Assembly (NCBI RefSeq): GCF_050920415.1 | Contig: NZ_CP169309.1 | Strand: one strand, 5' to 3' | DNA length: 64,000 nt | Origin: Escherichia coli | Lineage (GTDB): Bacteria; Pseudomonadota; Gammaproteobacteria; Enterobacterales; Enterobacteriaceae | In this document: positions 3,224 through 24,991 of the stretch, one piece after another | Numbering within the stretch: the first letter of the stretch is position 1 | Layout: each line of letters starts with the position of its first letter | Notes under the pieces: generated by a model | What the model saw: the letters and a program-made list of their open reading frames with translations, nothing else | Database searches by the model: none | Told to the model about the DNA's origin: nothing | Made by a program: the position numbers and the translations under genes

Positions 3224-3786
3224 ATTAAATGAGACAGGAATGTATACAAGCGGTCCAGCAGGCGGCGCAGCGCACGTTAACGGCGCGAGAAATACAGAAC
3301 ATTGAAGACCGCATTTATCGCAATATGCGCTCCATTGCTCGTGATGACCCTATGTCGTGGCGACAACTTTCCGAGTCAGAGCGGCTGTATCGTGCAGCAC
3401 AATTGGCATCTGAAGAATTACAGCGAGAAGCGGCATTAAAGAAACGTCGTGTGGCTCTCACTATAGCTGCACGTCAGAGATTGGATAAATTTATCAATAG
3501 CTATCAAGGGGCTGATGGGAAACTTGGCGCTCTTAACCGTACTATAGCTTTTAATGCAGACGGTAAATCTAATTTCCTCTCTGTTGAATCCAGAACAAAA
3601 GCCACCCGTGATTATGCATTGAGTCAATTGCAGGAGGCATTCGAAGCAGTTGATCCTCGCTTTTTTGGTCTGTTTGAAGATGAAGCGGGCGTACGTAGAC
3701 TGGCCCCCTGAATCTCCAGACAACCAGTATCACTTAAATAAGTGATAGTCTTAATACTAGTTTTTAGACTAGTCATTGGAGAACAG

Positions 3787-4152
3787 ATGATTGATGTCTT
3801 AGGGCCGGAGAAACGCAGACGGCGTACCACACAGGAAAAGATCGCAATTGTTCAGCAGAGCTTTGAACCGGGGATGACGGTCTCCCTCGTTGCCCGGCAA
3901 CATGGTGTAGCAGCCAGCCAGTTATTTCTCTGGCGTAAGCAATACCAGGAAGGAAGTCTTACTGCTGTCGCCGCCGGAGAACAGGTTGTTCCTGCCTCTG
4001 AACTTGCTGCCGCCATGAAGCAGATTAAAGAACTCCAGCGCCTGCTCGGCAAGAAAACGATGGAAAATGAACTCCTCAAAGAAGCCGTTGAATATGGACG
4101 GGCAAAAAAGTGGATAGCGCACGCGCCCTTATTGCCCGGGGATGGGGAGTAA
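3787..4152 (+). CDS. insC: IS2 transposase OrfA (InsC)
   Basis: Translation [41 protein letters not shown]... recognised as IS2 InsC; ORF track starts 15 codons upstream at an ATG within the left inverted repeat. Confidence 0.9.
4104..4110 (+). other. A6G slippery heptamer, putative -1 programmed frameshift site joining insC and insD
   Basis: AAAAAAG at the 3' end of insC inside the insC/insD overlap; IS3-family elements produce the OrfAB transposase by -1 frameshifting at such sites. Confidence 0.55.
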
Positions 4153-5015
4153 GCTTAGTCAGCCGTTGTCTCCGGGTGTCGCGTGCGCAGTTGCACGTCA
4201 TTCTCAGACGAACCGATGACTGGATGGATGGCCGCCGCAGTCGTCACACTGATGATACGGATGTGCTTCTCCGTATACACCATGTTATCGGAGAGCTGCC
4301 CACGTATGGTTATCGTCGGGTATGGGCGCTGCTTCGCAGACAGGCAGAACTTGATGGTATGCCTGCGATCAATGCCAAACGTGTTTACCGGATCATGCGC
4401 CAGAATGCGCTGTTGCTTGAGCGAAAACCTGCTGTACCGCCATCGAAACGGGCACATACAGGCAGAGTGGCCGTGAAAGAAAGCAATCAGCGATGGTGCT
4501 CTGACGGGTTCGAGTTCTGCTGTGATAACGGAGAGAGACTGCGTGTCACGTTCGCGCTGGACTGCTGTGATCGTGAGGCACTGCACTGGGCGGTGACTAC
4601 TGGCGGCTTCAACAGTGAAACAGTACAGGACGTCATGCTGGGAGCGGTGGAACGCCGCTTCGGCAACGATCTTCCGTCGTCTCCAGTGGAGTGGCTGACG
4701 GATAATGGTTCATGCTACCGGGCTAATGAAACACGCCAGTTCGCCCGGATGTTGGGACTTGAACCGAAGAACACGGCGGTGCGGAGTCCGGAGAGTAACG
4801 GAATAGCAGAGAGCTTCGTGAAAACGATAAAGCGTGACTACATCAGTATCATGCCCAAACCAGACGGGTTAACGGCAGCAAAGAACCTTGCAGAGGCGTT
4901 CGAGCATTATAACGAATGGCATCCGCATAGTGCGCTGGGTTATCGCTCGCCACGGGAATATCTGCGGCAGCGGGCTTGTAATGGGTTAAGTGATAACAGA
5001 TGTCTGGAAATATAG
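4110..5015 (+). CDS. insD: IS2 transposase OrfB (InsD), DDE integrase-like
   Basis: 301-aa ORF overlapping insC in the -1 frame; sequence ...[50 protein letters not shown]... recognised as IS2 InsD. Confidence 0.9.
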
Positions 5016-7048
5016 GGGCAAATCCAGTACGTGACCTGGTATATGAAATGCGGGGGCAAAATACTGGCAATGCTAAAGCAAGAAAAGGTGCTAAGGCGTG
5101 GAGAGAAGTTACAGAGCTGCTGCGCCGCCGGTTTAATGATGCTGGTGGGGACATTGGCTATCTCGAAAACTGGGGGATCCCTCAACATCATTCTATGGAA
5201 AAGGTTGGGGCGGTATCAAAGGATAAGTGGGTTAGCGATGTTATAGGTAAGCTGGATCGCAAATATTATATCCGAGCCGATGGACAACTGATGAACGATG
5301 CCGAGTTGTCTGCATTTCTTGGAGAGGCTTATAACACGATCGCTACTGGTGGGCTGAATAAGCTTACTGATACCGGAATGCGAATTTCCGGCGCACGTGC
5401 TAACCGTGGTAATGCATCACGACAGATACATTTCAAAGATGCAGATTCCTATCTGCAATATCAGCAACTTTATGGCGATCGCTCTCTATGGGAAATCATG
5501 GTCGGTCACCTGGAAGGTATCAGTAAAGATATTGCACTGGTGGAAACATATGGCCCAAACCCCGATCATGTTTTCCGCTCTCTTCTTGATCAGGTGAAGG
5601 CAGAAACGGCAACAGCTAACCCGAGTAAAACCGGTAAAGTCGAGCGGCTGGCGAACAACACAGAGAATCTGTACAACTTTATTTCCGGAAAGACACAGCC
5701 TGTAGCAAATCCGCACATCGCGCGATGGTCTGACAATATCCGCAACTGGCTGGTTGCCAGCAGACTCGGATCCGCGTTGCTGTCATCGTTCTCTGATCTT
5801 GGAACCATGTATCTGTCTGCGAAGGTGACCAACCTTCCAATGAACCAGTTATTCCGCAACCAGCTTGAAGCTATGGACCCAACGAACCGTACTGAGCTTG
5901 CGCGGGCGCGCCGCGCTGGTCTGGCGATGGAATCTCTACTTGGCAGCGTTAACCGCTGGGCGATGGATAATATGGGGCCGTCAGTGTCTCGTTGGGCTGC
6001 AACGGCGGTAATGCGTGCCAGTGGGCTTACAGCATGGTCAGATGCGCACAAGCGCGCCTATGGCGTAACCATGATGGGAAGCCTGGGAGAAGTAGTGTCA
6101 CGGACACCAGACCTTCGTAGCCTCGATGACTCTGATTTTCGTATCCTGAAAAGCAAAGGGATTACTGACACAGACTGGAGCGTATGGAAGCTGGCGCAAC
6201 AGGAGGACTGGGGGAACGGTAATAATACGATGCTGACACCGGAAAGCATTATGCGTATCCCTGATTCAGCAGTTAAACATCTTGGTGAGCCTGAACGCGT
6301 GAAATTTGAGGCAATGCGTAAACTGCTCGGTGCCGTAACTGAAGAAGTTGATATGGCTGTTATTACACCGGGAGCACGTGAGCAACTGATAACCGGTTCT
6401 GGTATTCAGCGTGGAACATGGAAAGGTGAATTAACGAGAAGTGTTTTCCTGTTTAAATCGTTCCCTATCTCGGTGGTTATGCGTCACTGGTCACGCGCTA
6501 TGGGTATGCCGTCTGCTGGTGGGCGTGCGGCATATATTGCGACGTTTATTGCCAGCACGACCATTCTTGGCGCTTTGTCTCAGCAACTTAACGACCTTGC
6601 GTCTGGTCGTAATCATCGCGAGATGACAGGAGAAGATGCTGCTAAATTTTGGCTTGGTGCTCTACTGAAAGGTGGTGGTCTTGGCCTTTACGGTGACTTT
6701 TTATTGTCAGATCACACTAGGTACGGAAGCGGCGCGCTGGCGTCGATGCTTGGCCCGGTAGCTGGTCTGGTTGATGACGTAGTGAAGATTGCTCAGGGCA
6801 TACCGTTAAATGCTGTGGAAGGGAAGAATGAGCAGACTGGTGGTGATCTGGTTAAGCTGGGGAAGGGGCTGATGCCAGGTGCGAATCTCTGGTACTTGAA
6901 GGCGGCTCTCGATCACATGATCTTTAACCAGATGCAGGAGTATTTTTCACCAGGCTATTTGCGTAAAATGGAGCAACGTTCGAAGAAAGAGTTTAACCAG
7001 ACATACTGGTGGCGACCACAGGATGTCACTCCGCAATAAGGATGAGAA

Positions 7049-7189
7049 ATGATTGCTTTTATTCTTGTTGTGTTTGCGCTTGTTGCACTTGGCGTTATGA
7101 ACCGTAAATGTATCATTGACGATGGCGAATTTGCTGTTGCAGTTATTTTGATATTATCTGGTGTAGCAGGATACATAGGCTTGTCATAA
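7049..7189 (+). CDS. Hypothetical small hydrophobic peptide (46 aa, two predicted hydrophobic segments)
   Basis: ATG at 7049 preceded by AAGGATGAG 4-10 nt upstream; translation MIAFILVVFALVALGVMNRKCIIDDGEFAVAVILILSGVAGYIGLS; stop TAA 7187-7189; followed by palindromes and a terminator. Too short for the ORF track. Confidence 0.35.
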   Translation: MIAFILVVFALVALGVMNRKCIIDDGEFAVAVILILSGVAGYIGLS

Positions 7190-7209
7190 CGTGAGTGTGA
7201 CATGTCACA

Positions 7210-7233
7210 GGCCGCTTTCGCGGCCTTTTCTTT
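7210..7233 (+). terminator. Rho-independent terminator (GGCCGC-TTTC-GCGGCC followed by TTTTCTTT)
   Basis: 6-bp GC stem with 4-nt loop followed by a T-run on the + strand; preceded by the perfect palindrome TGTGACATGTCACA (7196-7209). Overlaps the stop codon of the convergent minus-strand ORF. Confidence 0.5.
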
Positions 7234-7489
7234 ATGTGGTTTGTTTTCGTAGTTGTTCGGCACAATAGTCGAGATGTGTTTGCAGATCCTGCATAGACAT
7301 CTGTGAGCTGGTGACGTAGTTAATCAGTGCAGTCAGTTCGGCAAGTGGGCCATCGACATTAAATCCATCCTTATCGAGATCCCGGAGTAATTTCATCAAG
7401 TGCGATCCTTCCACCAGTGACCTGACGCCTCCCGGCGTGTGAATCCTTTCGGTAAATCCCTCTTCCAGTGGATAGTGATACTGCTGCAT
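7232..7489 (-). CDS. Hypothetical small acidic protein (85 aa from the ATG at 7489) behind a LexA box
   Basis: ORF track gives 7232..7507 from a TTG; a better start is the ATG at 7489 (MQQYHYPLEEGF...) with GGAGAAG 7 nt upstream. A strong LexA box lies about 20 nt upstream. No family recognised by eye. Confidence 0.5.
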   Translation of the reverse strand: MQQYHYPLEEGFTERIHTPGGVRSLVEGSHLMKLLRDLDKDGFNVDGPLAELTALINYVTSSQMSMQDLQTHLDYCAEQLRKQTT

Positions 7490-7508
7490 CTTATCTTCTC
7501 CATGCAAT

Positions 7509-7528
7509 AACTGTATGTTTATACAGTA
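7509..7528. promoter_or_regulatory. LexA (SOS) box AACTGTATGTTTATACAGTA
   Basis: CTGT-N8-ACAG with an AT-rich spacer, 17/20 match to the E. coli consensus TACTGTATATATATACAGTA; sits in the divergent region between the small minus-strand ORF and the tailspike gene. Confidence 0.6.
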
Positions 7529-7684
7529 TCAAATAATTTGTTTGCTATCCAGCACGTTTTGCGAATCACCTGAAAGGTAATATCTGCTCACATTAACACT
7601 CTTTCCATCCATATATGGTTTTTCAGGTAATAGAATAACCAGATATGCGGCGCAACGGGTGCTGCGACTATCTGGAGATTTAAC

Positions 7685-9940
7685 ATGACGGTCTCAACCG
7701 AAGTTGACCACAACGAATACACAGGCAATGGCGTTACGACTTCATTCCCTTATACCTTTAGGGTTTTCAAGGAATCTGATCTGGTAGTGCAGGTGGTTGA
7801 CCTTGACGAAAATATCGCTGTGCTGGCTCTGGATACTGATTACACTGTCACTGGGGCTGGTGGATATAACGGCGGTAATGTAATTCTGTCGAAGGCGTTA
7901 GCTAACGGTTACCAGATTTCTATATCACGAGAGCTCCCGGTTACGCAGGAAACTGATTTGCGTAATCAGGGGAAGTTCTTTGCAGAAGTGCATGAGGATG
8001 CTTTTGATAAGCTAACGATGCTGATCCAGCAGGTTCGAAGTTGGTTTAGCTTGGCGCTGCGCAAGCCGTCATTCGTGGCAAATTATTATAACGCGCTGAA
8101 CAACTATATTCGAAACCTGAAAGACCCGGTAAACCCGCAGGATGCATCCACAAAGAATTATGTGGACAGTACGGTTTTATCGAATATCGACCATACAATC
8201 CGTGTTCCTGATTCTTATATCGATCCGCTGCCACCTCTCGCTCAACTTGAAGGAAGCATAATCGGCATCGCCAACGGTAAGCCCGTTCCGTTCCCTGTGC
8301 CTTCAGGAACGGCGGCTGACGTATTCAACCAGTTGGCCAGCAGCGCTGACGGGAAAGGTGATGCGCTGATAACAGTGAAGCAGCCTTACCAGGGGGCAAT
8401 TTCTCTTTCGCAGCATATAAAAAATGCACAAGCCATTAGTGTTGTTGATTTTGGAGCGACAATTGATGGAACGCTTCACCCTTTAAGCGAGATATTTTCA
8501 ACACTATCAGCTGCTCAGATGGTATATCCATTTGTTTCATCTCTATCTCAATCTGTTGATTATGCTGCGCTTCAGTCCGCATGTAACACGGGAAAAACAG
8601 TGCTTATTCCAAAGGGAACTGGTTACTATAATTCAACTATTTTTCTGAAAAACTCCGTTAGGATTGTTGGAGAGGGAACTGATACAATAAATAGAGCGCA
8701 ATCATTTATGTCTATTGTTGGTAATATTTCAGCCTTTGCTTTAGATCAAGGTGATTCCCTATCGACAAAAATGATTCAGATTTTTATTGATGGTCTTTAT
8801 ATTTTCTATGATCCAGGAACCACACCAACGAATCCTGAAAATGATGGTGGGAAAATTGCATTTAATTTCTACTCGACAATTCCAAATTCAACAAGCTTGG
8901 AAATGTCTGAAATTAAAAACTGTACAGTTCATGGTGCATGGTCATGCTTTAATGATCAGACTGGCACATACTTGACAAAACTTACGAATGTGTGGGCCAG
9001 AAACTGCCATAATGGTTTTACAAAAGGAACTGGCACTACCATTCTGATGGAAAGATGTTATACATCTGGATGTATATCACCATATCAGTTTGGTTCTGTC
9101 TTTGCAGCTACAATGATTAACTGTGCCATGGATGGATCAAATATTTCGTTAAACGCAGGTTCGCTTGGTGGGGCTGGCGTTCATGTTCTTAACACACATA
9201 GTTTTAACATTATTGGTTTTGATGCGGAGGGTAACACCATCTCTACAGATGGTTATGGAGAGGCAGCACTATTCCATTTCGAAAATAGTAGTGGTGGCAT
9301 TTCTGGCCTGACTGCACATCAGAACAGCATGCGAAGTGTTGCGCCAAGTGATGCTGGTGTAGTTTCCTACATCAGGGCGTCAGGTAGCAGCGATGTTAAA
9401 ATTGAGTCATCAGAAGATGATTTATCTGACACCAACACAGTTGCATATACTGGGTCTGGGTATCCCATCATGCTACATGCAACTGACACAGCTAAAATAA
9501 GCGTCTTTAATAGCAGATTCAGGGCGACTACCACTGGTACCCCTGTCTTAAGTACGCTAAGTACTGGTGATGTATCATGGTATGACTGCCCTAAAAAAAC
9601 AGGACTTATCGTAGATGGTTATTCACAAATAACATCTAAGGAAGGATTGCAAACATCATGCTTCTATACCAGTAAAGGCTCTACTGCTGTTGCTGAAAAT
9701 ACTCCGACAACACTTTTCTCTCTACCAGATTCGCAAGGTACTTACATTATTAGCGTATGGGTGGCTGGAAGCGGAGAAAATTACGCATCTACACAACTGG
9801 CAATGTATGATGGAGATAAGCTAATTCTTGTTGCGTTAAAAATAGCAGCATTTCTTAGTTTTTCAGCAACAGGGAGAATTGTAACCATTACAAGCCAGGT
9901 GGCAGGCACTTTAAACTGGACTTACACTAAAATAGGTTGA
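7685..9940 (+). CDS. Phage tailspike / tail fibre (751 aa), probable O-polysaccharide-specific receptor-binding protein
   Basis: N-terminus MTVSTEVDHNEYTGNGVTTSFPYTFRVF... has the Y-x-G-x-G...F...F signature of podovirus tail-fibre/tailspike particle-binding domains; from memory it resembles epsilon15/phiV10-type tailspikes (unverified). The C-terminal two thirds are visibly AT-rich and Ser/Thr/Asn/Gly-rich, consistent with a beta-helical receptor-binding domain. Confidence 0.75.
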   Translation: MTVSTEVDHNEYTGNGVTTSFPYTFRVFKESDLVVQVVDLDENIAVLALDTDYTVTGAGGYNGGNVILSKALANGYQISISRELPVTQETDLRNQGKFFAEVHEDAFDKLTMLIQQVRSWFSLALRKPSFVANYYNALNNYIRNLKDPVNPQDASTKNYVDSTVLSNIDHTIRVPDSYIDPLPPLAQLEGSIIGIANGKPVPFPVPSGTAADVFNQLASSADGKGDALITVKQPYQGAISLSQHIKNAQAISVVDFGATIDGTLHPLSEIFSTLSAAQMVYPFVSSLSQSVDYAALQSACNTGKTVLIPKGTGYYNSTIFLKNSVRIVGEGTDTINRAQSFMSIVGNISAFALDQGDSLSTKMIQIFIDGLYIFYDPGTTPTNPENDGGKIAFNFYSTIPNSTSLEMSEIKNCTVHGAWSCFNDQTGTYLTKLTNVWARNCHNGFTKGTGTTILMERCYTSGCISPYQFGSVFAATMINCAMDGSNISLNAGSLGGAGVHVLNTHSFNIIGFDAEGNTISTDGYGEAALFHFENSSGGISGLTAHQNSMRSVAPSDAGVVSYIRASGSSDVKIESSEDDLSDTNTVAYTGSGYPIMLHATDTAKISVFNSRFRATTTGTPVLSTLSTGDVSWYDCPKKTGLIVDGYSQITSKEGLQTSCFYTSKGSTAVAENTPTTLFSLPDSQGTYIISVWVAGSGENYASTQLAMYDGDKLILVALKIAAFLSFSATGRIVTITSQVAGTLNWTYTKIG

Positions 9941-9975
9941 TGTTATGCGTGGGGAGCAATGCTCCCCATCATCAA

Positions 9976-11835
9976 TTAAAAAATAAATGGCTTGTCATTT
10001 TTTAATTTTTTCCCAAACTCCCTTGAGCCTTCTAGAGTGAAATGACTATTATCAAAGTAAAGATAATCACCTTTAGTAGAAAGGATGTCACAATTCATTG
10101 ACTTTCCGCACTGCTCGGCAAGCGTATCTATGTATTTATACGAATGCTGGTTGCTACCAAGATAGCCTTTTATCGTATTGTTAATTTCAACTCTACTATT
10201 GTCATAATACTTTTTAGAGTATTTATTTATCCCATCAACTGTGTTTACGCCAGATTTAAAAGCAGACTTAATTATTTCCATTGGCTGTGCCGTAAACTTC
10301 ATCTTAGGCCCAAATACAATAACTTCTCCTTTAGTCCTCTCCTGTATTTTGCCTATAGAGTAAAGCATCCCGAACAGATCGCCAACGCCATAATCATCAT
10401 GAAGGATTATAATGTTAGCTTCAGCTATGGCTGGAGATGAGATTACGTCATTGAATATTTTTTTGCACTTTTCTACATAGGGCATGTCGTTTGGTGTATA
10501 ACCAAAGTTTGAACATAAGTTTGTAGTTCTTATATAAGTTATATCACCCTTCATCCCATTTTCAGTAAGTGCATAAGTCAGATCTATGCCATGAGAATTA
10601 CCGATTATTACTATTTTTTTGTCACCTGTCTTCGGTACAGGGTGAGGCTTGTCTCCATCAACCCAATACCTGTTCATTTGTTCTTTTAGCTGTTCGGACG
10701 TCATTGTGGCAAACGAAAACCTTGATGGAATTCCAGATAGCAATAGTACAGCGAAGCACAAACCAACTACACCACCTACAGGTAGCACGATTGAAGTTAA
10801 TTCATTCAAGGACCTGCCGTTTTTAAATTTTGAAAGTGCCTTTCTTGAAGGGTTTTCAATTAAATAAAATGATGCGGCACCAATAAGAATTGATAAGGCA
10901 ACACCTGATACTGTATAAACCATATCATCCATCTTATTCATTGACATATATACAACTATGGGCCAGTGAACCAGATATACCGAGTATGAAATTTTCCCAA
11001 CCCATTGAGATAATGCATTATCAAGTAATAGGTTATCTTTACATCCAAGATAAATGACAAAGAAAGTAGAAACGACTGGTATTAAGGCAAGATACCCAGG
11101 CCACTTCATTAAGCTGTTAAGCAAGACTATCCCCGATACTGCAAAGGCTATGGCAATCCATCTAAATACAGCAGTGCGTTTTGAATTTTGTATAGTAGGA
11201 AGAAGGTAGGCAAGGCCGCCAGCCAGCATCTCCCAAGCTCTGCTTGACAGAAGATAAAATGCAGCGCCCTGATTATTATAAGAAAGATACACTGAGGCAG
11301 TAAATGATATAATTGCAAGGATGGCAACAACATACCTTATATGCTTAGCGCCCAATAGCTTTGCAATCACCATCATTATGATTGGATATACCATGTAAAA
11401 CTGCCACTCTACAGAAAGCGACCATGTATGAAGAAGCCATTTCTGCTTTGATGCAGTATCAAAATAATCAATGCTATGGTAATACTCAACGTTTGAGAAA
11501 AATAAAAGGCTACTTCTTACGTGTTGAGCCAGGTATTCATATTCAGAAGGTAAAAGAATGAAGTAACCAACTATCAGAACAGCAACTGAAACTACAGTTA
11601 AAGCAGGTATAATTCTTCTTGCCCTATCAAGATAAAATCCTAACAGTGAAAAGTTTCCATTAGATATCTTTGTGTAAATTATTCCAGTCATCAGATACCC
11701 TGATATAACAAAGAATATATCTACGCCTGAAAATCCACCAGAGAACCCTTTGACTCCGAAGTGATAAAGGACAACTGCCATAACAGCAATAGCCCTAAGC
11801 CCGCCTATATCTGTTCTGTATTTTAAAGAAGACAT
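9976..11835 (-). CDS. Membrane acyltransferase-3 family protein with C-terminal SGNH-like domain; probable O-antigen acetyltransferase (OafA/Oac-like)
   Basis: 619 aa; N-terminal R-x10-H motif (RTDIGGLRAIAVMAVVLYH) and about 10 hydrophobic helices typical of acyltransferase-3; C-terminal soluble domain with a GNSH block. Strongly AT-rich gene, convergent with the tailspike. Confidence 0.8.
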   Translation of the reverse strand: MSSLKYRTDIGGLRAIAVMAVVLYHFGVKGFSGGFSGVDIFFVISGYLMTGIIYTKISNGNFSLLGFYLDRARRIIPALTVVSVAVLIVGYFILLPSEYEYLAQHVRSSLLFFSNVEYYHSIDYFDTASKQKWLLHTWSLSVEWQFYMVYPIIMMVIAKLLGAKHIRYVVAILAIISFTASVYLSYNNQGAAFYLLSSRAWEMLAGGLAYLLPTIQNSKRTAVFRWIAIAFAVSGIVLLNSLMKWPGYLALIPVVSTFFVIYLGCKDNLLLDNALSQWVGKISYSVYLVHWPIVVYMSMNKMDDMVYTVSGVALSILIGAASFYLIENPSRKALSKFKNGRSLNELTSIVLPVGGVVGLCFAVLLLSGIPSRFSFATMTSEQLKEQMNRYWVDGDKPHPVPKTGDKKIVIIGNSHGIDLTYALTENGMKGDITYIRTTNLCSNFGYTPNDMPYVEKCKKIFNDVISSPAIAEANIIILHDDYGVGDLFGMLYSIGKIQERTKGEVIVFGPKMKFTAQPMEIIKSAFKSGVNTVDGINKYSKKYYDNSRVEINNTIKGYLGSNQHSYKYIDTLAEQCGKSMNCDILSTKGDYLYFDNSHFTLEGSREFGKKLKNDKPFIF

Positions 11836-11982
11836 AATCGCTATCGTTTTGAGTAAGATGCATTAATGATATCACCTTTAGGGTAATTTCGTTAAGAGTT
11901 ATCCGATCAAATTTAATCCACATATGGTTTATTGTGTATGATGAACTCACCAACTAAGGGGGTTCTTTATGCACAATAAACG

Positions 11983-12396
11983 GTGGTCACTATGGCGCAT
12001 GTGCTGACAACAGAGTCAGTAAATCAGGGGTTAAGCCTGACTGCACTGGCGTCCGTGTTCGTTGGTATACCGCCTGAGGTGGCTTTAGGTGCTCTTGCTG
12101 GTGCGGTAATTTTTGTTACCTCAGCGGTTGAGTATCCGATAAAGCGTAGGTTGCTCCTGGCGCTCCTAAGCTTCCTCTGCGGCGTTCTCTTCTATAAAGC
12201 GACAGCTTCCATTCTGATTGGCTTTGCCAGCCTGATACCAACGATTACGCAGGACTCTTTTGAGAAGGGCATTGTGTATTCCGCCGGGGCATTCGTGTCT
12301 GCAATCGTCGCTGTTCGCATTGGCATCTGGCTGTATCACCGTTCTGAAAATCCGCGCGACATGATCCCGGGGAGAAAAGACGATGACCAGTCCTGA
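11983..12396 (+). CDS. Putative holin (137 aa multi-span membrane protein)
   Basis: First gene of a + strand cluster ending in endolysin and Rz/Rz1; several hydrophobic helices and a charged C-terminus; two closely spaced in-frame Met codons (MVTMAHV). Holin call is positional. Confidence 0.5.
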   Translation: MVTMAHVLTTESVNQGLSLTALASVFVGIPPEVALGALAGAVIFVTSAVEYPIKRRLLLALLSFLCGVLFYKATASILIGFASLIPTITQDSFEKGIVYSAGAFVSAIVAVRIGIWLYHRSENPRDMIPGRKDDDQS

Positions 12397-12676
12397 TCTG
12401 CTTCTCATCCTTAACGCCGCTATCTGCGGTGGCATTGCAATCCGAGTGCTTCTGTTCCGCCGTGACGGGTCACGTCACCGCTGGTGGGGTGGGTGGCTCG
12501 CCTATCTGCTGATCGTCGTGGCAGCCAGCGTACCTATCCGGACTTTCTACGGGTACTACGTCAGCGCCGACTGGTCAGAAGTCATCATCAAAGCCGTGTT
12601 CCTGGCTGCGCTCATCAAGACAAAAGGGAACGTGGTGCAAATTTTCAAGATAACGAGGTCCCAGCATGGACATTAA
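12383..12676 (+). CDS. Putative second holin/antiholin-like membrane protein (97 aa)
   Basis: Overlaps the end of the previous ORF and the start of the endolysin gene; two or three hydrophobic segments; basic C-terminus. Confidence 0.45.
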   Translation: MTSPDLLLILNAAICGGIAIRVLLFRRDGSRHRWWGGWLAYLLIVVAASVPIRTFYGYYVSADWSEVIIKAVFLAALIKTKGNVVQIFKITRSQHGH

Positions 12677-13295
12677 CCAATTCCAGCGTGCAGCTGGCAT
12701 CAGTGAGGTGCTGGCCGCGCGCTGGTACCTGCATATCACCGCAGCCATGAAAGAGTTTGGCATCGAGCAACCGCTGCACCAGGCGATGTTTATCGCGCAG
12801 GTGGGGCATGAGTCTACTGGTTTCACCCGGCTGCAGGAAAACTTCAACTACAGCGTTGCAGGGCTCGCAGGATTCGTCCGCGCCGGGCGACTTACTCAGG
12901 GTCAGGCCAACGCGCTGGGCCGCCGTGCTGGCGAGCCATCGTTACCGCTGGAGCGCCAGCGCGCGATCGCCAATCTGGCGTACAGCAAACGCATGGGGAA
13001 CAATGCCCCTGGTGATGGCTGGAATTACCGTGGCCGCGGACTTATCCAGATTACCGGTTTGAATAACTATCGTGATTGCGGAAACGTCCTGAAAGTGGAC
13101 CTGCTGGAGAATCCTGAACTGTTGGCGCAGGACGAATATGCGGCTCGTAGCGCGGCGTGGTTCTTCGCCAGCAAAGGATGCATGAAGTATACCGGCGATA
13201 TTGCACGTGTAACTCTGATTATCAATGGTGGCCGGAACGGCATCGACGACCGGCGCGCGCGGTACATCACTGCCAGTAAGGTGCTGGCGGTATGA
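12666..13295 (+). CDS. Endolysin, glycoside hydrolase family 19 (chitinase-like lysozyme)
   Basis: 209 aa; motif FIAQVGHESTGF...NYRGRGLIQITG typical of GH19-type phage endolysins; position between holin-like genes and Rz. Confidence 0.85.
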   Translation: MDINQFQRAAGISEVLAARWYLHITAAMKEFGIEQPLHQAMFIAQVGHESTGFTRLQENFNYSVAGLAGFVRAGRLTQGQANALGRRAGEPSLPLERQRAIANLAYSKRMGNNAPGDGWNYRGRGLIQITGLNNYRDCGNVLKVDLLENPELLAQDEYAARSAAWFFASKGCMKYTGDIARVTLIINGGRNGIDDRRARYITASKVLAV

Positions 13296-13774
13296 TCTGG
13301 GCATTCGCAAAAGCATACTGGAAACAGTTGCTTATCGTGGTGATGCTTGCTGTTCTGGTCATATCGGGAATTGTTTCCTGGAATGTACACGGCAGTCGTC
13401 AGTACGATGCCGGGTATGCGCAGGCGAAGGAAGACCGCAAAGCTGAAGATGAGATAGTTCGTCAGCACTACGAACAGGAGAAATCGATCAATGAACGTGA
13501 AGCGCAGCAGAGGATCGACCAGGCGCGCAATGATGCTCTTGATGCTGCCGCTCGCGCTGGCCGGTTGCAGCAACAACTCTTTGCCATCCGTGAGCAGCTC
13601 AGGCAGTATAACGCCATTGTCGGCGCTGGGACGTCAGCCGCAGACACCGGAGTTTTGCTTGCCGACGTGCTCAGCAAATCTCTCGAGAGAAACAGACAAC
13701 TGGCAGAGTATGCTGACCGGGCAGCCGAAGCCGGAAGAGTCTGCGAAAAACAATACGACACCCTGACCAGATAG
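13292..13774 (+). CDS. Rz-like inner-membrane spanin (i-spanin)
   Basis: 160 aa; N-terminal transmembrane helix followed by coiled-coil-prone Q/R/E/A-rich periplasmic domain; ATGA overlap with the endolysin stop; contains an embedded +1 frame lipoprotein ORF. Confidence 0.75.
   Translation: MIWAFAKAYWKQLLIVVMLAVLVISGIVSWNVHGSRQYDAGYAQAKEDRKAEDEIVRQHYEQEKSINEREAQQRIDQARNDALDAAARAGRLQQQLFAIREQLRQYNAIVGAGTSAADTGVLLADVLSKSLERNRQLAEYADRAAEAGRVCEKQYDTLTR
13530..13766 (+). CDS. Rz1-like outer-membrane lipoprotein spanin (o-spanin), embedded in Rz
   Basis: +1 frame ORF wholly inside Rz; from ATG at 13530 the product MMLLMLPLALAGCS... has a signal peptide with lipobox LAGC and a Pro-rich mature part. 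ORF track starts it further upstream at 13491. Confidence 0.7.
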   Translation: MMLLMLPLALAGCSNNSLPSVSSSGSITPLSALGRQPQTPEFCLPTCSANLSRETDNWQSMLTGQPKPEESAKNNTTP

Positions 13775-13884
13775 CATGGCATTTTTCATGGTACTGATTT
13801 CCGGTGACGGTATATAAAACGGTACTAGAAAAATGAAGTTTTGGAAAAATGTTATCACTCAATTGGTTATGATTGTCGTAAATA

Positions 13885-13899
13885 ATTGAGTGGGAATGA
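13885..13899 (+). other. Putative prophage attR core / remnant of the guaA 3' end (ATT GAG TGG GAA TGA = IEWE-stop)
   Basis: 15-nt string encoding the C-terminal residues ...IEWE plus stop of GMP synthase as recalled for E. coli GuaA, in the orientation expected for guaA converging on yfgI; preceded in frame by a stop codon, so it is an isolated gene end, not a gene. Confidence 0.45.
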
Positions 13900-13924
13900 T
13901 TTGATCCCTGCACTATGAATTAGC

Positions 13925-13953
13925 AAAACCCTCTGTTACTACAGAGGGTTTTT
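13925..13953. terminator. Bidirectional rho-independent terminator (AAAA-CCCTCTGT-TACT-ACAGAGGG-TTTTT)
   Basis: Perfect 8-bp stem, 4-nt loop, flanked by A-run and T-run; lies between the guaA-end remnant and the convergent yfgI stop. Confidence 0.65.
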
Positions 13954-13991
13954 ATACTCACGAATCATAGGATTGAAGTTACTGACATCGC

Positions 13992-14531
13992 TTAGTTAAA
14001 CCAGCTGTCCGATTTGTTCTCTTCTGCTTTGCCCACGCTTTTCATCAGATCGCGACCGCCTTCAGTCATATTCCTGTTTGCGTCAGCTTCAGATTGCACC
14101 ACATCGGTTTGCGCAGCTTTGTGCTTCAGTTCCTGATCGATAAATTCGTTTTCTCGCTTAACGCGGGCTTCTTCTTTCGCCAGCGCCAGTTTTTGTTTCT
14201 GAATCTCTAAGCTGCGTAGCTCATCTTCATAACTTTGATCGCGTTTCTTGTCCGCAGTGGCTTCGGCGTCCAGTTTATCCTGACGAGCTTTCTTATTCGC
14301 CGCTGCCGTTGCCGCTCTTTTATTAGCCGCGGCCTGGGCGTTTGCGCGACGTTGCTTCTCTTGCTGGATTTCCCTGTTGCGCTCCGCGACCCATTCGTCA
14401 TGCTGCCTTTGCTCTTCATTTTTACCTTGCTGTTCCGCTTCTGCGACAGCAGAGAGTTGATCCTGCAATGATGAGGCGATAGCCGGATAGCTTAAGGAGG
14501 CTAAGATGGCGCAAAGAAAAACTTTCTTCAT
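13992..14531 (-). CDS. yfgI: YfgI, periplasmic protein (179 aa)
   Basis: Signal peptide MKKVFLCAILASLSYPAIA followed by a highly charged coiled-coil-like region; length and position match E. coli yfgI. Confidence 0.85.
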   Translation of the reverse strand: MKKVFLCAILASLSYPAIASSLQDQLSAVAEAEQQGKNEEQRQHDEWVAERNREIQQEKQRRANAQAAANKRAATAAANKKARQDKLDAEATADKKRDQSYEDELRSLEIQKQKLALAKEEARVKRENEFIDQELKHKAAQTDVVQSEADANRNMTEGGRDLMKSVGKAEENKSDSWFN

Positions 14532-15567: not shown

Positions 15568-17042
15568 AAAAGGTTCCTTGAAGTATGTCCCACGCCGTGG
15601 ACGGTACTTACATTAAGGCACAACAGGACAAAATGGTCAATTCTTCGTTATGTAAAAAAGCGTCAGTGGATACATATTTTAATGTTATGGAAGTTAATTT
15701 AATTATTTACAATGATGATGTAATAATGATGAATTAACATGATAAACGTAATAATTCATTAATCAGGGTTATTTTGTTTGATATATATCAATTGGAACTT
15801 TCATATGACACTTAGAATCAATGCTCTCTATAGTGATGAATAATCATCATTCGAAGTCAGGTGGGATGCCTGTCTGAATACACCTCCTTCAGGATGTGGG
15901 GGATTCTGCTGAGCATCTATGAAACTGAATGCAACCTATATAAAAATACGTGATAAATGGTGGGGGCTTCCGCTGTTCCTGCCTTCTTTAATCTTGCCCA
16001 TTTTCGCCCATATTAATACTTTCGCGCATATTTCTTCCGGTGAGGTTTTTCTCTTTTACCTGCCTTTGGCACTGATGATCAGCATGATGATGTTTTTCAG
16101 CTGGGCGGCATTGCCAGGGATCGCCTTAGGGATTTTTGTTCGCAAATATGCAGAGCTGGGTATTTACGAAACGCTCTCATTAACAGCTAATTTTATTATC
16201 ATTATCATTCTCTGTTGGGGCGGTTACAGGGTCTTTACTCCCCGGCGTAACAACGTTTCACATGGTGATACCCGTTTAATTGCCCAGCGTATATTCTGGC
16301 AGATTGTATTTCCTGCAACGCTGTTTCTAATACTTTTCCAATTTGCTGCGTTTGTTGGATTACTGGCGAGCAGAGAAAATCTGGTCGGCGTCATGCCCTT
16401 TAACCTCGGGACCTTAATCAATTATCAGGCCTTGCTGGTAGGTAATCTGATTGGTGTCCCGCTGTGCTATTTCATCATTCGGGTGGTGCGAAATCCGTTT
16501 TATTTACGCAGCTATTATTCGCAATTAAAACAGCAAGTTGATGTCAAAGTCACCAAAAAAGAGTTCGCGCTCTGGCTACTGGCATTAGGTGCGTTGTTGT
16601 TGCTGTTATGCATGCCGTTAAATGAAAAAAGCACGATTTTCAGCACCAATTATACCTTGTCATTATTGCTACCCCTGATGATGTGGGGAGCCATGCGCTA
16701 TGGTTATAAGTTGATTTCGCTGCTCTGGGCGGTCGTGCTGATGATTAGCATCCACAGCTATCAAAATTACATTCCCATTTATCCTGGCTATACCACGCAA
16801 CTGACCATAACCTCCTCCAGTTATCTGGTATTCTCTTTTATTGTCAATTATATGGCTGTACTGGCAACCCGTCAGCGAGCGGTAGTCAGACGCATTCAGC
16901 GGCTTGCGTATGTGGACCCGGTGGTTCATCTGCCAAATGTTCGCGCCCTGAATCGCGCGTTGCGTGATGCCCCCTGGTCTGCGCTTTGTTATTTACGCAT
17001 TGAACCGCCCCGGGTTTCCTGGAGAGTGTTTTATCTGTGAAC

Positions 17043-17930
17043 TCAGGCTGCCAGATCATTGTTTCCGATGGAAGCATAATAAGCTTTTTCTGCTTCTGCC
17101 GGAGGAGTATGGCCCAGCCTTCCCAGCAATCGTCGATTGTTATACCAGTCCACCCACGTGAGTGTGGCCAGTTCCACTTCTGCACGGTTTTTCCAGCTCT
17201 TACGGTGTATTACCTCCGCTTTGTAAAGACCATTGATGCTCTCAGCCATCGCGTTGTCATACGAGTCGCCTGTACTCCCTGTTGATGCCAGCAGTTTTGC
17301 TTCTTTTAGTCGCTCCGTATAGGCCAGTGACACATACTGAGAGCCTTTATCGCTGTGATGGATGGTGCCAGACGGACGACGGGCCCACAACGCCTGCTCC
17401 AGCGCATCCAGCACGAATGTCGTTTCCATAGACGATGAGACCCGCCACCCCACGATGTATCCGGCAAACACATCAATGATGAACGCCACATAGACGAAGC
17501 CCTGCCATGTGCTGACGTAAGTAAAATCAGCCACCCACAGCTGGTCAGGACGTTCTGCCACGAACTGACGGTTTACGCGGTCACCTGTGGCAACGGTTTT
17601 CCGGCTGACGGTAGTGCGGACCTTTTTACCCCGGAGAACACCGGCAAGTCCCATAACCGCCATGAGGCGCGCCACTGTACATCTGGCCACCCTGATTCCT
17701 TCCCGTAACAACTGACGCCAGACTTTACGCACACCGTACACCTGATGATTTTCATCGTATACGCGCTGTATCTCTCTCTTCAGCCAGTCATCGCGCTGCG
17801 CACGGGCACTGCGTTTATCAGGATGATGCCGCTGCTGCTGACAATGGTAATACGTTGACGGGGCAATATGCAGTTCACTGCATACCGGTCCGACCCCGTA
17901 CTGCTCACGCAGCTTATCCAGCAGTGGCAT
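17043..17930 (-). CDS. IS3-family transposase OrfB (DDE integrase domain)
   Basis: 295 aa; ...HSDKGSQYVSLAYTERLKEAKLLASTGSTGDSYDNAMAESINGLYKAEVIHRKSW... typical IS3-family OrfB. Confidence 0.9.
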   Translation of the reverse strand: MPLLDKLREQYGVGPVCSELHIAPSTYYHCQQQRHHPDKRSARAQRDDWLKREIQRVYDENHQVYGVRKVWRQLLREGIRVARCTVARLMAVMGLAGVLRGKKVRTTVSRKTVATGDRVNRQFVAERPDQLWVADFTYVSTWQGFVYVAFIIDVFAGYIVGWRVSSSMETTFVLDALEQALWARRPSGTIHHSDKGSQYVSLAYTERLKEAKLLASTGSTGDSYDNAMAESINGLYKAEVIHRKSWKNRAEVELATLTWVDWYNNRRLLGRLGHTPPAEAEKAYYASIGNNDLAA

Positions 17931-18256
17931 TATTTTTTCCAGAGGCGGTCGAACTCCGCCTTCGCAAAATAAGCGGAAGCCTGGCGAAGGATATCGTTAC
18001 TGCGGCGCAGTTCACGATTTTCACGTTCCAGCTCTTTCAGACGCTGACGTTCAGCGGTGGTGAGCCCACCATCACCGCTCCCGGTATCCCTCTCATGCTG
18101 GCGAACCCAGACACGCAGAGTCTCTGGCGTACAGCCAATCTTTGGAGCAATGGAACAAATTGCCGCCCATTGTGAGTCATATTCGCCCTGACTTTCCAGA
18201 ACCATACGAACTGCGCGTTGACGGACTTCGGGGGAAAAACGAGTATTTTTAGTCAT
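17930..18256 (-). CDS. IS3-family transposase OrfA (helix-turn-helix, leucine zipper)
   Basis: 108 aa [57 protein letters not shown]...; ends in an A6 run (plus-strand T6 around 17933-17938) at the OrfA/OrfB junction, the likely frameshift window. Confidence 0.9.
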
Positions 18257-19480
18257 CCTGTTTACCTCTTTCTCAGGAAGTTTAGTCTCCAGGATTTCCG
18301 GGGCGGTTCACATCCCCGGCATGGAAATGCTGGTTAAGAACTATGGCATCATGCTACGGATTCAATACAAGCAAAAACTTTCTCACTGGCTGTCACCATT
18401 GCTGGAACCGGGTGAAGATGTTTATCAGCTTTCGGGTAACGATCTCGCGCTGCGACTGAATACAGAAGCGCACCAGGAGCGCATTACCGCACTGGATAGC
18501 CATCTCAAGCAATTTCGTTTCTTTTGGGATGGAATGCCGATGCAACCGCAGATTGGCGTCAGTTACTGCTATGTGCGCTCGCCAGTGAATCATATCTACT
18601 TACTGCTGGGAGAGCTAAATACGGTTGCTGAACTCTCCATCGTGACCAACGCCCCGGAAAATATGCAGCGTCGCGGGGCAATGTATTTGCAACGCGAATT
18701 GAAAGATAAAGTCGCGATGATGAATCGGCTACAGCAGGCGCTGGAACACAACCATTTTTTCCTGATGGCCCAGCCGATTACCGGTATGCGTGGTGATGTC
18801 TACCATGAGATCCTTCTGCGCATGAAAGGTGATAATGATGAACTGATCAGCCCCGACAGCTTCTTGCCGGTCGCGCACGAATTTGGTTTATCGTCGAGTA
18901 TCGACATGTGGGTCATTGAGCATACGCTGCAATTTATGGCTGAAAACAGAGCGAAGATGCCCGCTCACCGTTTTGCTATTAATCTGTCGCCAACCTCGGT
19001 ATGTCAGGCTCGTTTTCCATTTGAAGTCAGTCAGTTGCTGGCTAAATATCAAATTGAAGCGTGGCAACTTATTTTTGAAGTCACCGAAAGTAATGCTCTG
19101 ACCAATGTTAAGCAGGCGCAGATCACCTTGCAGCATCTTCAGGAATTAGGCTGCCAGATTGCGATTGATGATTTCGGAACCGGCTACGCCAGCTATGCAC
19201 GGCTTAAAAATGTGAATGCCGATCTGCTTAAAATTGACGGCAGTTTTATCCGCAATATTGTGTCAAATAGTCTGGATTATCAGATAGTGGCGTCGATTTG
19301 CCACCTGGCGCGAATGAAGAAAATGCTGGTAGTGGCAGAGTACGTTGAAAACGAAGAGATCCGCGAGGCGGTGCTCTCTTTGGGGATCGATTATATGCAG
19401 GGTTATCTTATTGGTAAGCCGCAACCGTTAATTGATACGCTGAATGAAATCGAACCCATTCGCGAAAGTGCCTGAATAAT

Positions 19481-19507
19481 GCGGGCCGACATTTCTTGTC
19501 GGCCCGC
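19481..19507. terminator. Bidirectional terminator hairpin between convergent pdeF and ppx (GCGGGCCGACA-TTTCT-TGTCGGCCCGC)
   Basis: 11-bp GC-rich perfect inverted repeat with 5-nt loop, 6 nt after the pdeF stop and just beyond the ppx stop. Confidence 0.55.
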
Positions 19508-19513
19508 AAAGCA

Positions 19514-23126
<3,613 letters not shown>

Positions 23127-23297
23127 TACCACTTTTACTCCGTTTTATTCACGGGACACTGCCTGGATATTATGGCGAGCAATATTGGCAGATGTCCAAC
23201 TATGCCAGAAAAGGGGGAAAAAAACTGCTGGAGCTTGCGATTTACAGGTGAATTGAAAAACGCCAGCGGCAGAGCTGGCGCTTTAACTACGGGGGCA

Positions 23298-23935
23298 TTA
23301 CTCGTCGGCAGCGTAGCCCTGCGGCGGCAGACGTTGACCATCCAGCCACGCGGCGTTTTCGTGCATTTTCAGACGACCATCGGCAAACCAGCTAATCACC
23401 AGTGGATAAATAGCGTGTTCCTGGGTTTGCACGCGGGCGGTGATGTCATCCTCCGTATCACCAGCAAATACCGGGACTTTCGCCTGTAAAATAACCGGGC
23501 CACCGTCCAGTTCATCGGTGACGAAATGCACCGATGTACCGTGCTCTTCATCGCCATTTTCCAGCGCCTGACGATGGGTGTGTAATCCGGGATATTTCGG
23601 CAGCAGAGAAGGGTGAATATTCAGCAAACGCCCGGCATAGTGGGAGACAAACGCCGGGCTGAGAATGCGCATAAAACCAGCCAGCACGACCACATCGGGT
23701 GCGTACATGTCGATTTCATGAATCAACTCCCGGTCATAGGCTTCACGACTGTCAAACGCGCTGGCGATGAGCGTATGGGTAGCAATACCCGCCTGGCGGG
23801 CGCGTTCAAGGCCGAACGCGTCGGCCTTATTGCTGAAAACTGCCCGTAGGGTGCCTTTAATTTTGTTGGCTTTGCAGGCGTCAATTATTGCCTGCAAATT
23901 ACTTCCGTTGCCGGAAATAAGCACCACAATATTCA

Positions 23936-23936
<1 letters not shown>
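23298..23936 (-). CDS. purN: Phosphoribosylglycinamide formyltransferase 1
   Basis: 212 aa MNIVVLISGNGSNLQAIIDACK...; overlaps the purM stop by 1 nt. Confidence 0.95.

Positions 23937-24991
<1,055 letters not shown>

Follow-up and report, generated by a model that had tools for sequence, protein, structure and literature searches.

A tailspike and a convergent AT3-SGNH acyltransferase as a probable O2/O50 host-recognition and seroconversion module of a phiV10-like Escherichia coli prophage

A 64,000-nucleotide stretch of an Escherichia coli genome (assembly GCF_050920415.1, contig NZ_CP169309.1; hereafter the window) contains the right arm of a Uetakevirus (phiV10/epsilon15-like) prophage lying between guaA and yfgI. 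Within this arm a tailspike gene faces a gene for a membrane protein in which an acyltransferase-3 (AT3) domain is fused to an SGNH domain. In our view the two genes are likely to serve this phiV10-like prophage as a module for host recognition and seroconversion, in which an O2/O50-directed tailspike is paired with an O-antigen acetyltransferase.

The two open reading frames (ORFs) are convergent with a gap of 35 bp, and both have exactly the coordinates and lengths given for them in an earlier reading of the DNA made from its letters (the original prediction; see the Table). They cannot be chance ORFs, their length and the strength of their family matches being too great. The order of genes, namely an eps15-gp19-like ORF, the tailspike, the convergent acyltransferase, a holin-like gene, a holin, a GH19 endolysin and Rz, is that of phiV10. 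The tailspike is placed after the eps15-gp19-like ORF and ahead of the lysis cassette, as it is in phiV10, in phage vB_EcoP_PAS61 (PAS61) and in the prophages of strains FT130 and MS20673, and the acyltransferase takes the position and orientation of phiV10 oac, between tailspike and holin. On either side the DNA resembles that of phiV10, TL-2011b and PAS61 and of several hundred prophages in E. coli. The central claim of the original prediction, that a mosaic tailspike and a convergent OafA-class acyltransferase make up a phiV10-type module, agrees with the synteny, with the beta-helix and with the catalytic residues described below.

Both genes also stand out in composition: the shift noted in the original prediction is real, G+C falling from about 50% to 37–40%. 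The G+C content is 48.5% over tailspike residues 1–227, 40.1% in the receptor-binding part (8366–9940; 29% at third codon positions, GC3) and 37.0% in the acyltransferase gene (GC3 33%), compared with 50–58% in neighbouring phage genes and 51.8% for the chromosome; the drop coincides with the receptor domain. Serine, threonine, asparagine and glycine together make up 38% of the C-terminal part of the tailspike, 29% of its N-terminal part and 24–27% of neighbouring virion proteins. The enrichment claimed for the C-terminal domain was found for serine, threonine and glycine but not for asparagine.

Breakpoints taken from sliding identity and BLAST divide the tailspike, which over its full length matches phrog_8649 (1348 bits), into three segments. 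The protein starts MTVSTEVDHNEYTGNGVTTSFPYTF, and the motif NEYTGNGVTTSFPYTF, by which a conserved anchor had been recognised, is present at residues 10–25. The anchor, from residue 1 to about 160, shares 87–89% DNA identity with phiV10, ending at about 8166, and its residues 1–156 match the tailspike N-termini of PDB entries 28lx and 8ck1 (E 2e-26); many PHROG tail families match the tailspike only from residue 1 to about 160–260. The neck (residues ~161–227, to ~8340–8365) is unrelated to phiV10 and, up to about 8340, is 100% identical to that of another set of E. coli prophages, MS20673 and SCU-116 among them. Divergence from the MS20673 group begins at a conserved GKGDALITVKQP junction, giving ~43% amino acid identity in the receptor domain and 58% over the whole protein, and from about 8345 similarity rises to a P22-like tailspike of enterotoxigenic E. 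coli (ETEC). The receptor domain is 96–100% identical to the C-terminal two-thirds of this P22-like protein, which is found in the pig strains ETEC1730, ETEC1703, ETEC1717, ETEC1718 and PEC422 and has a PF09008 head-binding domain. More distantly related receptor domains (43–73% identity) are found on Gp66-type N-termini (PF18668) and on siphovirus lateral tail fibres, for example that of JeanPiccard. Because the same domain is found on P22-like, Gp66-type and siphovirus anchors, sequence comparison identifies it as a free-standing exchangeable module that is swapped at the GKGDALITVKQP junction. The exchange points lie at ~8166 and ~8340–8450 on the left and at ~11690–11860 on the right. Inside the receptor domain a patch at 9438–9560 has 82–93% identity to FT130 and to the P22-like ETEC copy, the rest being 98–100% identical. 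It resembles a short tract of gene conversion that arose in the window lineage, FT130 and ETEC having the same identity profile to the window, to which each was compared rather than to the other.

Pfam gave only weak matches to the tailspike (PF12708, E 0.009; Phage_T7_tail, E 0.38) and NCBIfam gave none. An AlphaFold2 model of residues 201–751, computed as a monomer with 28 homologues, has a mean predicted local distance difference test score (pLDDT) of 83.4 and a predicted TM-score (pTM) of 0.74 and is nearly all beta-strand. The model predicts a right-handed parallel beta-helix of depolymerase type followed by a C-terminal beta-sandwich. Its Foldseek matches include O-antigen tailspikes, among them the Sf6 endorhamnosidase (E 4e-10), and in fold it resembles the depolymerases of O-antigens and capsules rather than an endosialidase. 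The lack of any beta-helix or depolymerase fold, which would have refuted the original prediction, is thus not what structure prediction shows. By analogy with solved homologues the protein is expected to be a homotrimer. Four acidic residues of the helix, D424, D483 (NCAxD483), D513 and E515 (GFD513xE515GN), are invariant in the 28 homologues and are candidate catalytic residues. The O2/O50 backbone is Rha-Rha-Rha-GlcNAc, with no uronic acid, and because of this a glycosidase of the Sf6 type seems likelier than a lyase. A lyase mechanism was raised by matches to LKA1 gp49 and other beta-helix lyases and was judged unlikely because the O2/O50 unit, as described in PMC7685785, would offer it no uronic acid.

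The original prediction left the receptor specificity as unknown, but host genotypes and a published subtype of receptor-binding proteins (RBPs) both point to O2/O50, and sequence comparison makes the O2/O50 O-antigen the most likely receptor of the domain. Hosts were typed by wzx/wzy genotype, by which O2 is not separable from O50. Every typable host of the receptor domain has an O2/O50 cluster, against a background of 2.4% (O2/O50 wzy in 132 of 5426 complete E. coli genomes). The galF-gnd cluster of FT130 has wzx and wzy of the 'O2/O50 family', as does that of ETEC1730, where wzy is annotated as frameshifted, and PEC422 and MFDS1022581 are both among the genomes with O2/O50 wzy. ETEC1730 and PEC422 thus combine an O2/O50 genotype with the same receptor domain on a P22-like anchor. 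Their origins are Chinese (a migratory bird), Belgian (pigs) and Korean (food; MFDS1022581, the closest relative of the window's host), and among the database copies of the tailspike one bears the name 'E. coli O2'. Were some three lineages independent, the chance of all falling within a 2.4% class would be ~1e-5. A 2023 survey defined an 'O2' RBP subtype by at least 30% amino acid identity over at least 60% coverage (PMC10408124), with Lederbergvirus 611R6, Braunvirinae JeanPiccard and the SCU-116 Uetakevirus prophage as members (PMC10408124 supplement). The window tailspike falls inside it, with 45.8% identity over 97% to 611R6, 53.3% over 94% to JeanPiccard and, to the SCU-116/MS20673 type, 58% overall (~43% when the receptor domain is taken by itself).

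It could be argued that the receptor domain targets some other serogroup, or a capsule common in these lineages, and that the O2 link is a lineage effect: few independent hosts were typable, the four strains of ETEC probably belong to one clone, the O2 subtype of the survey was likewise assigned in silico (PMC10408124) and JeanPiccard was isolated on K-12. We regard this as unlikely given that the hosts, though diverse in source and country, all have O2/O50 wzy in the face of the low background, that O2/O50 genomes also harbour a second cassette whose receptor domain is homologous (at least five of its eight hosts), and that the fold is not that of an endosialidase.

The main chain is the same in O2 and O50; what sets them apart is the Fuc3NAc side branch, which a point mutation in fdtB has removed (PMC7685785). 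The window acetylase was considered as a cause of their serological difference and rejected, since the literature assigns this to the fdtB mutation and the loss of the branch (PMC7685785). In the O2/O50 clusters of FT130 (13704–14075 of the extracted locus) and ETEC1730 (10994–11368, likewise) an acyltransferase gene of the Fuc3NAc pathway, lying between the genes for the 3,4-ketoisomerase and the aminotransferase, is annotated as two pseudogene fragments. Both clusters also have an ISAs1 remnant and an 'LTA synthase family' gene before gnd (FT130 21288–24473; ETEC1730 18773–21609). These defects, together with the annotated frameshifts of ETEC1730, could reflect real rough or variant O-antigens, or could be artefacts of assembly or annotation.

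The acyltransferase has the two domains that the original prediction expected of an OafA/Oac-class gene, with Pfam matches to Acyl_transf_3 (PF01757, residues 10–319, E 6e-31) and to the AT3-fused SGNH domain (PF19040, residues 402–611, E 1e-12) and with OafA/OafB catalytic residues and fold. Its best PHROG is phrog_6705, 'O-antigen acetylase' (597 bits, E 9e-179). A motif scan of the AT3 domain located R14-x10-H25, G33GFSGVD39, F41FVISG46, R71xxR74 and S114-N115. The SGNH triad is Ser414 (G412-N-S414) with Asp595 and His598 (D595-N-S-H598), invariant in the alignment, and there are cysteine pairs at 441/457 and 576/582. In 33 homologues R14, H25, G34, F35, D39, R71/R74 and S114 are invariant or more than 90% conserved. 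In OafA, mutants of R14, H25, G34, D39, R69, R72, S112, S412 and H590 have less than 2% of wild-type activity, while F35A keeps 19% and D587A 10% (PMC7448272). All of the residues essential in OafA are kept by the window protein at nearly the same numbering. An AlphaFold2 model (pLDDT 91.3) has helices to about residue 365 and then an alpha/beta domain, and its sole PDB fold match with E <0.001 is 6SE1, the periplasmic domain of OafB from S. Paratyphi A (E 5e-5, TM-score 0.65 on the target). A sequence search of the PDB gave no match at E <=1, so that OafB was reached by the fold search alone, and NCBIfam gave only a sub-threshold match to SucT (108.7 bits against a cut-off of 1275).

Close relatives are few. 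The protein has its own cluster of 50 member sequences at 99%, three short metagenome contigs follow at 67–90%, and beyond these identity is at most 51%, with relatives in Citrobacter, Enterobacter, Aeromonas and Providencia. It is less than 50% identical to any acyltransferase of deposited phages; its AT3 domain alone is 45–48% identical to the acetylases of PAS61 and Tyrion. By architecture it belongs to the OafA/OafB class, within which it is a new lineage. By analogy it is plausibly Oac-like in position and logic, though not a member of the Oac family.

In the mechanism we propose, the tailspike would be fixed to the virion by its genus-conserved N-terminal domain, while the exchangeable beta-helix domain most likely binds and probably hydrolyses the O2/O50 O-antigen. 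The AT3 membrane domain would carry acetyl from cytoplasmic acetyl-CoA over the inner membrane, and the SGNH domain (Ser414/Asp595/His598) would set it on what is presumably a sugar of the O-unit. On the acetylated O-antigen the phage's own tailspike would act poorly, leading to superinfection exclusion and to an O-acetylated O2 variant.

An alternative is that the acyltransferase acts on another glycan, such as enterobacterial common antigen, capsule, colanic acid or peptidoglycan, and serves host fitness or the exclusion of other phages. The AT3-SGNH architecture is common to enzymes with differing acceptors (PMC7448272, PMC9558356), and the window protein, at no more than 51% identity to homologues of named organisms outside its own cluster and less than 35% to the characterised OafB-type gtrC of BTP1, has no sequence-level match in the PDB. 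Against this, the slot is the one held in phiV10 by oac, whose action on O157 lipopolysaccharide (LPS) is proven; acetylases annotated for O-antigen or LPS modification are also found in PAS61 and Tyrion and in two Salmonella phages of Uetakevirus type, SPN1S and SPN9TCW; the best PHROG is 'O-antigen acetylase' and the sole structural match is the LPS acetyltransferase domain of OafB; and the gene lies beside an O-antigen-type tailspike in all contexts seen. Another acceptor is for these reasons improbable.

The state of this copy of the prophage bears on how far the module can be used. A complete IS2 with termini TAGACTGGCC... and ...GGGGCAAATCCA, flanked by a 5-bp target duplication (GTACG), interrupts the gene of an 824-residue virion protein, a homologue of phiV10 p20, upstream of the tailspike. 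The ORF at 5000–7039 is the 3' fragment of this gene, with a start codon supplied from inside the end of IS2. Because IS2 splits a virion gene, particle production is probably blocked and the copy defective. The conversion gene would still function, as virion genes are not needed for lysogenic conversion. In an assembly of run DRR168434 a contig is 100% identical over 7000–14000 and carries an IS-free copy of the module.

As to expression, a 41-nt hairpin at 9936–9976, with a 9-bp G+C-rich inner stem and a 7-bp outer stem, covers the tailspike stop codon and extends to the first base of the acyltransferase stop codon. Its folding energy is -20.6 kcal/mol on the plus strand (z -4.7) and -17.2 kcal/mol on the minus strand (z -4.1). 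It is identical in FT130 and absent in phiV10 and MS20673. It could be a bidirectional terminator without a T-run, and for want of a T-run it was not called by the consensus terminator scan. A consensus scan also gave a candidate sigma-70 promoter for the acyltransferase, TTAACG-18-TGnTATCAT, running from 11895 to 11866 on the minus strand; similarity to phiV10 and PAS61 resumes at 11862–11918. From its orientation and by analogy with phiV10, the acyltransferase would be transcribed on its own in the lysogen.

Several points weigh against a working O2/O50 recognition and conversion module. To our knowledge the O2 reference structure has no O-acetyl group. Literature searches, for which 'O2' is too short a term, yielded no report of a prophage-acetylated O2 antigen. 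Enzymes of the AT3-SGNH type acetylate other glycans too, for example peptidoglycan by OatA in Gram-positives. The serogroup of the window's host is taken from its relative MFDS1022581, the O-antigen cluster lying outside the window, and ETEC1730, whose annotation marks frameshifts in wzy and in one glycosyltransferase gene, may be rough. The tailspike is probably unused in the window copy owing to IS2, and promoter-like sites are no more frequent than in shuffled sequence, making the promoter call for the acyltransferase a weak one. That the module is an inert relic of a defective prophage, with neither gene expressed or selected and both intact merely because the IS insertion is recent, would fit the broken virion gene (IS2 at 3696–5026, GTACG duplication), the many IS copies in the host and the weak promoter evidence, but has little likelihood when neither ORF is truncated and each is 100% identical to its counterpart in the IS-free copy of DRR168434, all catalytic residues are intact and a lysogenic-conversion gene works without virion genes.

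The original prediction also proposed that both genes were acquired as one cassette. Among Uetakevirus prophages they are indeed replaced together, the variable block extending over 8166–11862 relative to phiV10 and ~8340–11687 relative to the MS20673 type. On the P22-like tailspikes, however, the receptor domain (96–100% identity) occurs alone, and in those copies no acyltransferase gene is annotated downstream of the tailspike. Sequence comparison thus indicates that receptor domain and acyltransferase move together among Uetakevirus prophages, yet are separable modules, because the receptor domain is also on a P22-like prophage without an annotated acyltransferase. The low G+C common to both genes is no proof of a single source. 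The whole cassette is found in one of 5426 complete E. coli genomes, that of FT130 (migratory bird, China; 97.6% identity).

A second pair occupies the same slot in O2/O50 strains, a 743-residue tailspike with a convergent 646-residue AT3-SGNH acyltransferase, and is present in eight of the 5426 complete genomes, at least five of which are in the list of genomes with O2/O50 wzy. The carriers are MS20673 (NZ_CP082067.1; positions 6286–10488 of the extracted locus), SCU-116, AH19K002, Eco_23-2678, VG38-53E1, 04-00955, HCP4S3_I4 and NZ_OZ547033.1, and one of the eight is a cerebrospinal fluid isolate. The two acyltransferases are 28% identical, except for the first ~60 residues, which are better kept. 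The first ~50 codons of both genes, with the DNA upstream, share ~83% identity (window 11687–11835 and MS20673 locus 10343–10488). Either recombination had a junction here, within the gene, or the two have a 5' segment in common with regulatory and catalytic roles; both readings are possible. One may speculate that at least two alternative matched pairs of tailspike and acetyltransferase against O2/O50 are successive moves in an arms race, in which the enzymes would acetylate different positions of the O2 unit and each tailspike would have come to tolerate the mark of its rival but not its own, though on present evidence this is a tentative idea and not a likely one.

Table. Positions of the module, its domains and neighbouring features in the window.
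Feature	Position	Strand	Basis or property
Tailspike ORF	7685–9940	+	751 aa
AT3-SGNH fused membrane acyltransferase, putative O-antigen O-acetyltransferase	9976–11835	-	619 aa; G+C 37.0%
Tailspike N-terminal particle-binding anchor, residues 1–160, Uetakevirus type	7685–8165	+	DNA identity to phiV10
Tailspike neck/linker, residues 161–227, ends in GKGDALITVKQP junction	8166–8365	+	Identity breakpoints
Receptor-binding domain, residues 228–751, predicted beta-helix and C-terminal beta-sandwich	8366–9940	+	G+C 40.1%
AT3 transmembrane domain, residues 10–319	10879–11808	-	Motif scan
Periplasmic SGNH domain, residues 402–611	10003–10632	-	Pfam, motifs, fold
G+C-rich hairpin across the intergenic gap	9936–9976		Folding energy
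AT-rich divergent intergenic region, acyltransferase/holin-like gene	11836–11982		Candidate sigma-70 promoter inside
Small conserved Uetakevirus ORF, 91 aa, left flank marker upstream of the tailspike	7232–7507	-	phrog_450, E 9e-48
IS2, complete, 1331 bp, TnpB ORF 4110–5015	3696–5026		Transposase match 728 bits

The small ORF to the left of the tailspike is a homologue of phiV10 p24 and epsilon15 gp19, its position matches that of PhiV10p24, and its DNA is 88–99% identical to phiV10, FT130 and MS20673. The prophage ends at about 13885, adjoining yfgI. In MFDS1022581, the closest chromosomal relative, the flank is 100% identical apart from IS and the guaA-yfgI attachment site (attB) is empty. 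The host chromosome contains many IS copies; a Shigella host was considered on account of this load and rejected in view of the identity to the flank of MFDS1022581, an E. coli. A second element, of the IS3 family (transposase ORFs 17043–17930 and 17930–18256, minus strand), cuts the c-di-GMP phosphodiesterase gene pdeF (yfgF) into ORFs at 15919–17040 and 18321–19475; the gene is intact at 747 residues in related strains and interrupted over 15919–19475 in the window.

The module provides a clear case of retargeting in Uetakevirus, with exchange points defined to within tens of bases, and its tailspike is a candidate for an O2/O50-specific receptor-binding protein that could be used in typing, in engineered tailocins and in phage design. 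It also brings to light a prophage gene that may O-acetylate the O2 antigen in one of 5426 complete genomes, with a second, unrelated gene in eight. Should the acetylation prove real, wzx/wzy typing would be blind to a variation that matters for serology and for vaccines. O2 is among the serogroups in glycoconjugate vaccine candidates against extraintestinal pathogenic E. coli. Were the arms-race reading true, lysogens would be hidden O2 O-acetyl chemotypes that genotypic serotyping overlooks.

Of the known systems, phiV10, with tail fibre p25 and Oac (p26), is like the window prophage in genus and gene order, and the two share 87–89% DNA identity in the flanks and the tailspike anchor. The presumed logic is the same, an O-antigen-specific tailspike with an acetylase that blocks re-adsorption (PMC9558356): phiV10 Oac acetylates the host O-antigen and confers superinfection immunity (reviewed in PMC9558356; also in the phiV10 annotation). 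The phiV10 receptor domain, however, which targets O157, is unrelated to that of the window after about residue 160, and its Oac, an AT3-only protein of 338 residues, has no detectable BLASTP similarity to the window acyltransferase (E 0.52). The latter, with 619 residues and an SGNH domain, falls outside the Oac family of phiV10 and Sf6, whose members are AT3-only and of ~330 residues. The original prediction drew its analogies from epsilon15, phiV10 and Sf6, and the last two are apt. For acetylation epsilon15 is the wrong model, as its conversion inhibits acetylation and changes the polymerase (PMC9558356).

Sf6 has a beta-helix tailspike acting on an O-antigen of Rha-Rha-Rha-GlcNAc type, which ranks among the best matches to the window tailspike both in sequence (residues 219–356, E 1e-7) and in fold, and its acetylation blocks the phage's own tailspike (PMC9558356). 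It differs in having a P22-like anchor, an AT3-only Oac and ~14% helix identity to the window tailspike, and because this identity is so low its catalytic residues are not transferable. PAS61, which is specific for O146, is a Uetakevirus whose corresponding slot holds an acetylase of AT3-SGNH type with 618 residues, 45% identical to the window protein in the AT3 domain. In contrast to the window, acetylase and tailspike run in one direction there, alignment of the SGNH domains fails save for the DxxH motif, and the receptor domain is a different one (O146). The SCU-116/MS20673 type has the same attB, backbone and convergent AT3-SGNH slot, with a tailspike identical to that of the window through about residue 219, and is commoner, occurring in 8 of 5426 complete genomes compared with 1 of 5426 for the window type.

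The closest parallel in architecture to the acyltransferase is Salmonella OafA/OafB (GtrC family II), with the same two domains, the same catalytic triad and the same two C-terminal disulfide pairs, and with the essential residues R14, H25, G34, F35, D39 and RxxR in common. The AT3 domain of the window protein is ~30–35% identical to those of phage OafB-type genes, for example BTP1 gtrC, while its SGNH domain has no phmmer-level match to 6SE1; block I reads GNS rather than GDS and the protein lacks the linker cysteine pair of OafA (C383/C397). Sf6 and phiV10 had already established the principle, and no concept is changed. The architecture and logic of the module are likewise familiar and its receptor domain belongs to the in-silico 'O2' subtype; what is new is an uncharacterised lineage of acyltransferase.

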